Shown here one piece after another: positions 2,072-7,191 of a stretch of DNA of 64,000 nt. Position 1 is the stretch's first letter. Each line of letters starts with the position of its first letter. A program made the position numbers and the translations under genes. The notes beneath the pieces are model-generated. The model worked only from the letters and a program-made list of their open reading frames with translations. It did not search any database and was not told the origin of the DNA. The stretch spans positions 6,180 to 70,179 of the forward strand of contig CBEWDL010000001.1 in the NCBI GenBank assembly GCA_965555375.1. The letters run 5' to 3'. This stretch comes from an uncultured bacterium (lineage in GTDB: Bacteria > Zixibacteria > MSB-5A5 > UBA10806).

Positions 2072-3346
2072 ATGGGTCTGACAATAGCGCAGAAAATTAT
2101 AGCTGACCATGCCGGGCTTGACAGGGTAGAGCCCGGGGAGATAGTCACTGTTCCGGTTGATATCGCCATGGCCAATGAGCTTTCGGCGGCGCTTTCCATA
2201 AAGGAATTGGGCAAGTGGGGAGTGGATCGCCTGTTCGATCCAGGTAAGGTCAGCCTGATACCAGATCATTTCACACCCGCAAAAGATATAAATGCAGCGG
2301 GCATCACAAAATTAGTCAGAGATTTTGCGAAAAAGCATAATGTTAAATGGTATTTCGAGGTCGGCCGGGCCGGAATTGAGCATGCAGTGCTGCCATTAGA
2401 AGGCGTAATTCTTCCCGGTCAGATTATGATCGGGGGCGATTCGCATACCTGTACTGCCGGGGCCATCAACTGTTTTGCCACCGGCATGGGATCAACCGAT
2501 ATCGCCTGCGCCTGGGCCACTGGCGAGGTCTGGCTGAAGGTGCCGCAATCGGCCAGGCTTACATATTCAGGCAAGCTCAAGCCCCATGTCTATGGTAAGG
2601 ATCTGATTCTTTATACTTTGAAGGATCTGACCACCTCCGGAGCGACATATATGTCCATTGAATATCACGGAGATGTCTTCGATCATTTGCCCATGGCCGA
2701 TAGATTCGCCATGGCCAACATGGCTATCGAAGCTGGAGCCAAAACAGGCATTTTCAATTTCGATAAGAAAACCAGGGAGCTGGTGGAATCGACGCCCAGA
2801 TTCAAATCCGAAAAGCCGGCATACAAGACTTATACTGCAGACGATGACGCTGAATATATGCTTGAGAGAAATTATGATGTATCAGATATCGAACCGCAGG
2901 TAGCCTGTCCGTATTCTCCTGATAACGTCAGGCCGGTATCGGAGGTTGGCGACGTGAAGATCGATCAGGTCGTAATCGGAACCTGCACAAATGGATGGCT
3001 GGAAGATATGATCCGGGCGGCGGAGGTATTCAAGGGGAAAAAGGTTCACCGTGATGTTCGCGTTATCGTGATACCGGGTTCTCAGGCAATCGCCAGGAAA
3101 GCGTTTGAATCAGGCATTCCGCAGATTTTTATCGATGCCGGCTGCGTTTTTTCGACATCGACCTGCGGGCCCTGTATAGGGGGGCATATGGGCGTTCTGG
3201 GCGACAACGAGGTCTGCGTCTCCACGACCAACCGGAATTTCACCGGTAGAATGGGACATATAACATCGAAAGTATACCTGACCAACCCGGCAGTGGCGGC
3301 GGCTTCCGCCATAATGGGGCGAGTAGGTTCACCTGATGAATTATAG
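2072..3346 (+). CDS. leuC: 3-isopropylmalate dehydratase / homoaconitase large subunit, archaeal type (aconitase family)
   Basis: 424 aa. Motifs GGDSHTCTAGA, VIGTCTNG and STSTCGPCIGG (Fe-S ligands). leuD and leuB lie downstream. Confidence 0.9.
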   Translation: MGLTIAQKIIADHAGLDRVEPGEIVTVPVDIAMANELSAALSIKELGKWGVDRLFDPGKVSLIPDHFTPAKDINAAGITKLVRDFAKKHNVKWYFEVGRAGIEHAVLPLEGVILPGQIMIGGDSHTCTAGAINCFATGMGSTDIACAWATGEVWLKVPQSARLTYSGKLKPHVYGKDLILYTLKDLTTSGATYMSIEYHGDVFDHLPMADRFAMANMAIEAGAKTGIFNFDKKTRELVESTPRFKSEKPAYKTYTADDDAEYMLERNYDVSDIEPQVACPYSPDNVRPVSEVGDVKIDQVVIGTCTNGWLEDMIRAAEVFKGKKVHRDVRVIVIPGSQAIARKAFESGIPQIFIDAGCVFSTSTCGPCIGGHMGVLGDNEVCVSTTNRNFTGRMGHITSKVYLTNPAVAAASAIMGRVGSPDEL

Positions 3347-4383: not shown

Positions 4384-4881
4384 ATGAAGCTTTCGGGGAA
4401 GGTTTACAGGATGGAGGATAACATTAATACCGATGTTATTCTGCCGGGTCGATGGTGCCATTTGACCGATGAAGCCGAGCTGGCCAAACACTGTATGGAG
4501 GATTATGACGGCGATTTCCCCAAGAAGGTTAAGCCTGGTGATATCATAGTGGCCGATGAGAATTTTGGCTGCGGGTCATCGCGGGAGGTGGCCCCGCTTT
4601 CGATCAAGGCGGTCGGAATTTCAGCGGTGGTGGCCAGATCCTTCGCCCGGATATTCTACAGAAACAGCATAAATATCGGATTGCCGATATTCGAATCGCC
4701 GGAGTGTGTCGACGCCACCGAGGCGGGTGACGAGCTTCAGATAGACATTTTCGGCGGAAAGATTGTCAATATAACTAAGGGCAAGGAATTCACATTCGCG
4801 CCGTTTCCGCCTTTTATGAAGACCATCATCGAGAAAGGCGGTCTCAAAGGTTGGGTGCTGGAGAAGGTGGGGAAAGTTTAG
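4384..4881 (+). CDS. leuD: 3-isopropylmalate dehydratase small subunit, archaeal type
   Basis: 165 aa. NINTDVILPGRW and GCGSSRE motifs typical of LeuD / aconitase swivel domain. Confidence 0.85.
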   Translation: MKLSGKVYRMEDNINTDVILPGRWCHLTDEAELAKHCMEDYDGDFPKKVKPGDIIVADENFGCGSSREVAPLSIKAVGISAVVARSFARIFYRNSINIGLPIFESPECVDATEAGDELQIDIFGGKIVNITKGKEFTFAPFPPFMKTIIEKGGLKGWVLEKVGKV

Positions 4882-4987
4882 GAGAAGTAGGGCAGGGCTC
4901 TCTTTGTGCTGCCACCCGGGATTTTGGCAGGAGCGGCGGATCCTACCCTGCAAGGAATAGAGTGTAACTAAAATATTCGGTGATCCT

Positions 4988-6106
4988 ATGCTGATTATTG
5001 ACATTAAACTTATCTTGGATGACGAAACCATAGTAGGTGACAAAGCTGTAGTTAAATACTTCAAGAATGGCGAACCGCAAGAGACCTTACATAAACACTT
5101 TCCGGGAGTTCTTTATGTGGAAGAAACCGCCGATTATAATATTACGACAAGAAATATAGATATGATGAAAAAGCTATATTTGCATCATGATATTGAAGGA
5201 AAGAATGAAATCAAAACTGCGTTGTCGAAGACCTTTTCCTATCAGAAAGGTTTTTATCATGAAATCAACTATTTTGCATTTGCAGTATTGCTTGTCATAG
5301 ATAAGAATACAGCATTAGATAAATTAGAAGCTGAATTTGTCTTGGATTCAGCGTATGCGGATACGCTTCATGTTTTGGGATTAATATTGATTTTTAAGCA
5401 TGATCATTTTGAAGCAAAGGACATTAGCAGATTAAAAGCTTTTCTAACAAGAATACAGAAGCAAATAGAGCCTCATGGGGATCCAACACTACCAATTCCA
5501 CATGGGCGCCGTCTGGAAGGAGAGGATAGATCGCGAATATTCGTAACAGGTTCCAATATTCATATAAGATCATTCAAGTATTCTATAATTCCAAATATCA
5601 TTAGAACGATACATGAGATTGAATATGGTCAACTAGGGAAATTTCTTGAAGGGATAAATTATGAGATTAATTCTGACAGAATTGCCCTTATCAGCAGAAT
5701 GGACGAACTTGAATTTCCTGAGGATGCTAAAAAATCCCTAGATGAAATTGATAAAATATATTTCGGCTCTCCAGATAAATTTGAATGTAAGAGTTGTATG
5801 GGTCTTATACGGACCTTTTTTGAGGAAATATTCAGAGAATTGGTACAAGGTTTGAGTAAGATCACGGGCAAACCATATGAATCTGAAAGTGATAGATTCA
5901 GCAATAGAAGAAAATATTTGCTGGGAATCGATTTTATAAATAATGACGAGGCAGAATTTTATCAACGATATTACAATCTCGTATCTAACGAGGGAATTCA
6001 CAGTTTGACGTCTAAACGTGAATATGTTAGAATTAGTCGCAATATGGCTATTGAATTAGGTTTGCTATTGTTAAATAGGTATAATGAGTATAAGAAGAAT
6101 GGTTAG
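4988..6106 (+). CDS. Low-GC ORFan (372 aa), no TM segments. C-terminal ~110 aa resemble a DUF4145-type helical domain. Candidate horizontally acquired defence/Abi-like gene
   Basis: GC visibly lower (~35%) than flanking leuD and leuB (~50-55%). Long uninterrupted ORF between leuD and leuB. No recognisable catalytic motif. Confidence 0.6.
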   Translation: MLIIDIKLILDDETIVGDKAVVKYFKNGEPQETLHKHFPGVLYVEETADYNITTRNIDMMKKLYLHHDIEGKNEIKTALSKTFSYQKGFYHEINYFAFAVLLVIDKNTALDKLEAEFVLDSAYADTLHVLGLILIFKHDHFEAKDISRLKAFLTRIQKQIEPHGDPTLPIPHGRRLEGEDRSRIFVTGSNIHIRSFKYSIIPNIIRTIHEIEYGQLGKFLEGINYEINSDRIALISRMDELEFPEDAKKSLDEIDKIYFGSPDKFECKSCMGLIRTFFEEIFRELVQGLSKITGKPYESESDRFSNRRKYLLGIDFINNDEAEFYQRYYNLVSNEGIHSLTSKREYVRISRNMAIELGLLLLNRYNEYKKNG

Positions 6107-6135
6107 TAGATTATTGCTTATAGAATGGGAGACTC

Positions 6136-7191
6136 ATGTATAAAATCGCGGTGATAGGGGGCGACGGTATCGGCCCCGAGGTAACTAAAGAAGCGTTGAA
6201 GGTGCTGAAAAAGGCCTCGGAGCTTTACGGATTCAGCTATGAGACAAAGGAATTTCCCTTCGGCTCGGAGCATTATCTAAAGACGGGCGAGTTGATGCCC
6301 GATTCGGTTTATTCGGAGTACAGAGATCACGATGCAATACTATTAGGCGCCATCGGCGATCCGCGTGTGGAGGTCGGCCTGGTGGAGCGGGCCGTTATCG
6401 CCGGCATCAGGTTCAATCTCGATCTATATGTAAACCTGCGGCCCATCAGGCTGTATGCGGAATCTTTATGTCCCATAAAAGATAAGAGATGCGAGGATGT
6501 CGATCTGGTGGTGGTGCGCGAGAATACCGAGGATGTCTATACCGGCATAGGCGGCATAATGAAGAAGGGGACTCCGGATGAGGTTGCCATAGCAAATATG
6601 GTCTTCACGCGTAAAGGATGCGAGCGTGCAGTGCGTTACGCCTTCGAGATTGCGAAAGCCCGTAATAAGGATAATAAGGTAACTCTTGTCGATAAGGCCA
6701 ACGCCATCCGCGCCCAGGATATATGGACCCGCACCGTGGAGGAGGTCGGCAGAGAATATCCCGATATAACTCACGATCATGCCTATATCGATGCCGCCTG
6801 CATGTGGATGGTGAAAAACCCGGAATGGTTCGACGTGGTCGTGACCACCAATATATTCGGCGATATCTTTACTGATCTGGGCGCCATGGTTCAGGGCGGC
6901 ATGGGGATCGCCGCCTCCGGGAATATCCATCCCGGGCAGGTCTCCATGTTCGAACCGATCCATGGATCGGCTCCGAAATACAAAGACAAAAACGTCGCCT
7001 GCCCCATAGCGGCTATCATGGCCGCTCAGATGATGCTCGACTTCCTCGGTGAGAAAAAGGCGGCTGCGGCTATCGAGGATGCGGTTACATCGCTCCTGCA
7101 ATCTGGCCGCATCAAATCCCTCGACGCCAGATCCGGGATATCGACATCAGAGATGGGCGATATGGTGGTGGTGGAATTAAAGGGAGAGTAG
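6136..7191 (+). CDS. leuB: 3-isopropylmalate dehydrogenase (isocitrate/isopropylmalate dehydrogenase family; homoisocitrate dehydrogenase not excluded)
   Basis: 351 aa. N-terminal [23 protein letters not shown] upstream. Context with leuC/leuD. Confidence 0.85.

Follow-up and report, generated by a model that had tools for sequence, protein, structure and literature searches.

The HEPN fold is a four-helix up-and-down bundle of two alpha-hairpins. In its published definition a histidine lies at the end of helix 3 or at the start of the helix 3–4 loop, the motif being Rx4-6H and then a polar residue (N, D or H). The definition also includes a second acidic residue in helix 2, often as Ex3[KR], and an insert between helices 2 and 3 (PMC3710099). 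Not all families keep the full motif. In DUF4145 the Arg...His pair is "mostly conserved, 80%", and in the Parep1/8 and c2405 families the histidine is kept and the arginine is missing; activity is still held possible for the latter, other basic residues taking the place of the arginine (PMC3710099).

HEPN proteins that act alone in abortive infection have precedents in RAZR (PD-T7-4), which consists of a zinc finger and a DUF4145 domain and needs R146 and H154 (PMC13017515), and in HepS, a nuclease of 218 residues from the Gifsy-1 prophage (PMC13043305). HepS presumably uses the canonical catalytic histidine (the deposited mutant is H105A). Other HEPN proteins are the HepT toxins of type II or VII HepT/MNT systems (SO_3166, 5yep; 7ae6/8xdj; TTHA0636, 1wwp) and MtlR, a HEPN-fold regulator of the DUF4145-like group found in mannitol operons (PMC3710099).

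This report concerns a gene, termed gene X, that is present within a leucine operon of a 64-kb stretch of Zixibacteria DNA (the window, i.e. the whole stretch analysed), and for the C-terminal half of whose product a fold resembling that of HEPN RNase domains is predicted.

A low-GC gene between leuD and leuB

Gene X (positions 4988–6106, stop codon included, + strand) has an ATG start and encodes 372 amino acids that form two domains. A sequence-only reading of the window had placed a 372-codon open reading frame between leuD and leuB, and both the coordinates and the neighbours prove correct. The left flank, leuD (4384–4881, + strand; 3-isopropylmalate dehydratase small subunit), is above the cut-off of the LeuD/DmdB subfamily model TIGR02087. 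The right flank, leuB (6136–7191, + strand; 3-isopropylmalate dehydrogenase), matches the equivalog NF002898 with 452.9 bits (cut-off 393). The large subunit gene, leuC, is at 2072–3346.

The same reading had described the GC content as lower than that of the neighbours, and windowed values bear this out. Gene X has a GC of 0.341 and a GC3 of 0.306, compared with a GC of 0.511 in leuC, 0.482 in the SDR gene, 0.510 in leuD and 0.532 in leuB, and a GC3 of 0.55–0.65 in the neighbouring genes. It is the 1119-bp segment of minimum GC in the 64-kb window (z = −4.9 relative to a mean of 0.49), where 0.08% of sliding windows have a GC as low.

An open frame of 372 codons would arise by chance in 34%-GC DNA with a probability of about 1e-14 (our own estimate from base composition), and the frame is also open in a 52%-identical orthologue in a related genome, L001. 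Thus, gene X is a real gene. As had been noted from the sequence, its protein has no transmembrane segment (Kyte-Doolittle means over 19 residues reach 1.55 at most), and the C-terminal peptide quoted in that reading is present. A promoter-like site, TTGACG-17-TAGAAT, is found at positions 6005–6033 within the 3′ end of gene X; it is not relied upon, and counts in a promoter/terminator scan were not clearly above the shuffled expectation.

The leuD–leuB junction in related genomes

The junction was compared in 17 related Zixibacteria, consisting of the window and genomes L001–L016. Gene X is found in two of them only, the window and L001, at the same nucleotide position of the junction. It is absent from the junction of L002–L005, L007, L008 and L010–L016. 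L001 is not among the closest relatives of the window; the two belong to different sub-clades, and the sister genomes L002, L003, L004 and L005 carry an empty leuD–leuB spacer of 62–67 bp (65–67 bp in the closest relatives). The leuD amino acid sequence of the window is 85% identical to that of L001 and 88%–93% identical to those of L002 and L003, and leuB is 90% identical to that of L001. The L001 copy of gene X also has a low GC, 0.31, compared with about 0.5 for its flanks. The leucine cluster of L001 is adjoined by a NgoMIV-type restriction-modification system and Mrr. Two other genomes have unrelated genes at the same junction: a gene with an FRG domain in L006, and an ATPase of AAA_14+DUF4143 type in L009.

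The sequence-only reading had proposed an insertion of foreign composition, with the gene missing from the corresponding junction of relatives, and the empty spacer of the closest relatives agrees with this. As evidence against its proposal that reading had named a gene kept at this junction throughout the lineage and of typical codon usage; gene X is instead accessory and of foreign composition.

The spacer between leuD and gene X (positions 4882–4987, + strand) is 106 nt long, and over the last ~20 nt it is similar to the final part of the ancestral leuD–leuB spacer. The match is clear when L001 (GATATTAAAGGAAAACAA|ATG) is aligned with L004 (GATATTGAAAGGAAAACA|ATG) and is weaker in the window. 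This resemblance suggests that the ATG of gene X occupies the position that the leuB ATG has in empty sites. A structured RNA, riboswitch or attenuator in this spacer was considered and rejected (fold z −0.25, no Rfam match). At the other end, a 29-nt 3′ tail (positions 6107–6135, + strand) contains the Shine-Dalgarno sequence GGGAG, which now serves leuB. The tail is about 75% identical to the L001 tail (own count) and is unlike the spacer of empty sites; judged by its sequence, it is part of the mobile unit.

Around gene X the only flanking repeats are 11–16-mers of the kind expected by chance; no terminal inverted repeats, target-site duplication or attC site was found, and no recombinase lies between leuC and a MutL-like gene. 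A transposon, insertion sequence or integron cassette is rejected, as these hallmarks were not found.

The two copies of gene X differ in divergence along their length. Between the window and L001 the C-terminal half has a pS of 0.42 (dS 0.6) and a dN/dS of 0.18. In the same pair of genomes leuC, leuD, leuB and the SDR gene have a pS of 0.62–0.73 (dS 1.3–2.9). The C-terminal half is thus less diverged at synonymous sites than the flanks, which points to recombination or horizontal transfer of gene X. The N-terminal half is saturated (pS 0.80, pN 0.47, ~33% aa identity). Gene X is therefore mosaic in ancestry as well as accessory, and its evolution is modular, with a conserved effector half whose shared ancestry is recent, next to a sensor-like half saturated with change. 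The gene is under selection, as shown by the dN/dS of its C-terminal half and by a reading frame that is intact in both copies.

A large family without a model

The open reading frame had been called an ORFan from its sequence. The label does not hold: an exhaustive phmmer search found at least 470 cluster representatives (clusters at 50% identity) that match protein X at E ≤ 1e-3. Nearly all match residues ~200–370 only; thus the family has a common C-terminal module. The conserved domain is about 170 residues long and not the ~110 residues that had been estimated. The sources are almost all uncultured soil and sediment bacteria, and the family is unnamed and almost purely metagenomic. Word-indexed searches recovered far less. 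A single-sequence search gave gene X and the L001 orthologue only, a full-length profile added one member (P0140), and a C-terminal profile gave 47 unnamed relatives; no name or Pfam domain for the family came from these searches.

Protein X, its C-terminal domain, the family consensus and 150 relatives were scanned with HMM libraries. In Pfam, NCBIfam, PHROGs and PADLOC no model detects protein X or the family as a whole. The sequence-only reading had likened the C-terminal region to DUF4145 and had named Abi_2 and Swt1 among the families to be searched, and membership in these is not borne out. PF13643 (DUF4145) has no match to full-length protein X at E ≤ 1, and at E ≤ 10 it also fails to match the C-terminal domain of X, that of L001 and the family consensus; two of the 150 relatives match it weakly (E 0.042). 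The HEPN models Abi_2 / AbiD/F, Swt1, AbiJ and AbiV (Pfam/PHROG) are found neither for X nor among the families listed for the relatives. The PADLOC search that had been suggested (PADLOC-DB 2.0) gave no match to protein X at E ≤ 10. Among the 150 relatives there is one strong PADLOC match, to the defence-candidate model PDC-M24B at 2.5e-39, which probably arises through a fused domain, the rest being scattered and weak; one relative matches the CARF_HEPN model. PHROG families are matched by scattered single members, most of them weakly, and not by protein X or the family as a whole. Searches of PDB chains with the full-length and the C-terminal profiles gave chance matches only. Thus, at the sequence level there is no link of X to HEPN, DUF4145 or Abi models.

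Relatives of X were likewise not found in IMG/VR (pattern scan), nor by tblastn in 50,697 INPHARED phage records or 72,556 PLSDB plasmids, and a fold search of the viral BFVD structures with X gave nothing significant.

The genomic surroundings were examined in a small sample of ~20 family loci. In the scan of metagenome loci the broad alignments had no sufficiently conserved stretch, and a narrower sub-family alignment was used. The GC content is below that of the gene's own contig in 18 of 20 family genes. Defence or mobile genes adjoin about 4–5 of the ~20 loci, and the remainder lie among housekeeping genes (e.g. lepA-lepB, purB/PPDK and glnS). One island contains AbiJ_NTD4, reverse transcriptases and PIN; other relatives are beside a resolvase and Mrr, or beside PLDc_2, and one belongs to a DUF3854 primase element and has DUF4062 next to it. 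Among 85 neighbour proteins there are nine matches to defence models at E ≤ 1e-5, some of them generic. No partner gene is conserved across the ~20 loci, the neighbour sets being heterogeneous, and the downstream open reading frames, when compared between two relatives, proved unrelated. No NTase is present among the first 25 of the 56 neighbour families.

Predicted fold and candidate active site

An AF2 model of protein X has a pLDDT of 88.8; an earlier model, from two sequences, had a pLDDT of 59 and was unusable. The N-terminal all-alpha domain (residues 1 to ~189; positions 4988–5554, + strand) is modelled with six helices between residues 55 and 164, followed by a low-confidence loop at 165–189. 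It can be aligned in 117 of 150 family members and is very divergent. This fast-evolving domain is possibly a sensor or regulatory module. A tandem-HEPN arrangement, with the N-terminal domain as a degenerate HEPN, was rejected (hhalign probability of 0.9% against the C-terminal domain).

The next segment (positions 5555–5719, + strand) consists of a long linker helix at 190–221, the motif N-x-E-I-N-x-D and a helix at 225–240. The motif (nt 5657–5677) is highly conserved, with N224 in 97%, E226 in 90%, N228 in 82% and D230 in 99% of members. It is specific to the family, and we know of no counterpart in descriptions of HEPN domains.

The HEPN-like core of the C-terminal module comprises residues 245–372 (positions 5720–6103, + strand). 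Its modelled helices are 245–259 (helix 1), 264–293 (helix 2), 319–336 (helix 3) and 344–371 (helix 4), which form the up-and-down bundle of two alpha-hairpins characteristic of HEPN. Residues 294–318 contain a further helix, 304–313, at the place where HEPN domains have the insert between helices 2 and 3 (PMC3710099). A Foldseek search with the model gave local probabilities of 0.97–0.98 to HEPN toxins; the top matches are consistently HEPN, come from several HEPN families and rank above generic bundles. The core is therefore predicted to adopt the HEPN fold.

The segment that corresponds to the HEPN motif is at positions 5984–6001 (+ strand). H338 is invariant (150 of 150 members). The modelled helix 3 extends to 336 and helix 4 begins at 344, so that, judged by secondary structure, H338 takes the position that the definition gives for the histidine. 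The arginine of Rx4-6H is missing in all 150 aligned members. Position 333 is S in 136, H in 9, N in 3 and A in 2; position 330 is variable, and no arginine is conserved 4–8 residues upstream of H338. A polar residue is present four residues before the histidine, position 334 being D in 63 and N in 35 members. Because the canonical arginine is missing, catalysis by X is not assured.

Other polar residues are conserved nearby. Helix 4 has a stripe, R348-x2-R351-N352-x3-E356 (positions 6029–6055, + strand), with R348 in 96%, R or K at 351 in 95%, N352 in 93% and E356 in 100% of members; from their i/i+4/i+8 spacing these residues are expected to share one helix face. In helix 2 (nt 5789–5824) K268 is conserved in 87%, R275 in 99% and E279 in 81%. 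The helix 4 stripe, together with K268, R275 and E279, is a candidate for residues that substitute for the missing arginine and complete the active site. The position four after E279 is K or R in only 27% of members; X itself has E279-x3-R283, and the family pattern is R275-x3-E279.

Proposed function and alternatives

Our judgement is that the X family is a new, non-canonical family of the HEPN superfamily, found here in a mobile single-gene insertion. Given the predicted HEPN RNase-like fold of the C-terminal half, a role as a defence RNase (abortive-infection or toxin-like) is plausible. We infer RNase activity, a role in defence and an N-terminal domain that senses a trigger. The full proposal, a horizontally mobile accessory gene that encodes a HEPN-like, single-protein abortive-infection or toxin RNase with a non-canonical site, has in our estimate about an even chance of being correct. 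In its favour are the accessory and mobile character of the gene, the predicted fold with its invariant histidine, the relatives in defence or mobile islands and the HepS and RAZR precedents; against it count the missing arginine, the lack of a sequence match to HEPN, DUF4145 or Abi models or PDB chains, the largely housekeeping surroundings of the ~20 loci, the empty phage and plasmid searches and the lack of transposon hallmarks.

Under this proposal gene X, placed directly before the leuB start codon, would presumably be read through with the operon, and the short 3′ tail of the insert would re-supply a ribosome-binding site to leuB. The protein might work by analogy with HepS and RAZR. Until a trigger is met, e.g. 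a phage protein, the HEPN-like domain would be kept inactive by the variable N-terminal domain. Protein X would then oligomerise and cleave RNA at a site formed by the invariant H338, with R348, R275, N352 and E356 replacing the canonical arginine, and RNA cleavage would lead to growth arrest of the infected cell. A more detailed version is rather unlikely as a whole. It takes the family as new single-protein abortive-infection nucleases with a rewired HEPN site (His with Arg/Asn/Glu of helices 4 and 2, and NxEINxD) and a hypervariable, recombining N-terminal sensor, which would spread by homologous recombination through the leuD/leuB flanks and be kept partly as a translation signal for leuB.

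X may alternatively be a non-catalytic HEPN-like adaptor or regulator on a mobile gene that binds a ligand, nucleotide or protein, like the NTase-associated substrate-binding HEPN proteins or MtlR. We regard this as rather unlikely: the histidine is 100% invariant at the catalytic position, Parep1/8 and c2405 keep H without R and are still considered potentially active (PMC3710099), and a mobile gene of low GC with a patchy distribution is more in keeping with a conflict gene than with a regulator. The resemblance to HEPN could, moreover, be due to convergence, in which case the C-terminal domain would be a generic up-down helical bundle and X a selfish or accessory gene with no biochemistry assigned. 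This is distinctly unlikely in view of the ranking of HEPN folds from several families above generic bundles, and of the coincidence with the HEPN definition in the histidine at the end of helix 3, the D/N four before it, the helix 2–3 insert and, less clearly, the acidic residue of helix 2; in addition, two relatives weakly match DUF4145 and one matches CARF_HEPN.

The remaining alternatives concern the origin and the setting of the gene rather than its fold. A phage or plasmid remnant (a moron, anti-defence or addiction gene) in place of a host defence gene would account for a low-GC, single mobile gene and for the relatives that are beside integrase, resolvase, primase or ORF6N-type genes. 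The empty searches of viral, phage and plasmid collections (IMG/VR, 50,697 phage records, 72,556 plasmids, BFVD), together with the scattered and mostly weak PHROG matches of single members, make it very improbable. Tight packing of X on the same strand between leuD and leuB, at the same position in two genomes, recalls MtlR, whose HEPN-fold gene product is likewise encoded within a metabolic operon (PMC3710099), and X could by analogy be a lineage-specific regulator or accessory factor of the leucine operon. We consider this extremely improbable, as X is missing from the closest relatives with otherwise identical operons, family members occur in unrelated contexts (lepA-lepB, purB/PPDK, glnS, mobile islands), composition is foreign and ancestry mosaic, and L006 and L009 have unrelated accessory genes at the same junction.

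If the prediction of a non-canonical HEPN RNase holds, a sizeable uncharacterised family joins the repertoire of HEPN conflict proteins. Four HMM libraries, one of them defence-specific, all miss this family, and motif-based screens would miss it too, since the arginine normally used to recognise HEPN RNases is missing. If protein X is not a nuclease, it is an ordinary horizontally acquired gene of unassigned function. As a hotspot for accessory genes within an operon for an essential biosynthesis, the leuD|leuB junction is a clear case from nature.

Comparison with known systems

Accessory or defence-gene hotspots between conserved core genes are a general concept of pan-genome studies. The leuD|leuB junction resembles them in being one precise site with varied cargo (X, an FRG protein, an AAA_14-DUF4143 ATPase, or nothing). 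It differs in that the site is inside an essential biosynthetic operon and receives single genes, with no integrase, tRNA or repeats.

X differs from the HepT toxins of HepT/MNT systems in lacking the Rx4H arginine and in having ~240 extra N-terminal residues. A HEPN-MNT toxin-antitoxin pair is rejected for X, as its neighbours are leuD and leuB and no minimal nucleotidyltransferase antitoxin is adjacent. MtlR is also a HEPN-fold protein within a metabolic operon with a partly conserved motif; it is consistently linked to mannitol genes, whereas the X family is patchy and has no consistent link to leu genes.

Compared with DUF4145/RAZR, X has no PF13643 match, no arginine upstream of the histidine, no zinc finger and no PADLOC match to PD-T7-4, and it has in addition the conserved NxEINxD segment. 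HepS is prophage-encoded and has 218 residues, whereas X is chromosomal, lies in an operon, has 372 residues and is without the arginine; the two have no detectable sequence similarity. The c2405 proteins, compared here by description only, carry an N-terminal AbiTii, which is not among the matches listed for the X relatives. X nevertheless deviates from the motif in the same way as the c2405-type and Parep1/8-type HEPN families: the histidine is retained without the arginine, whose part other conserved basic residues are proposed to take (PMC3710099).

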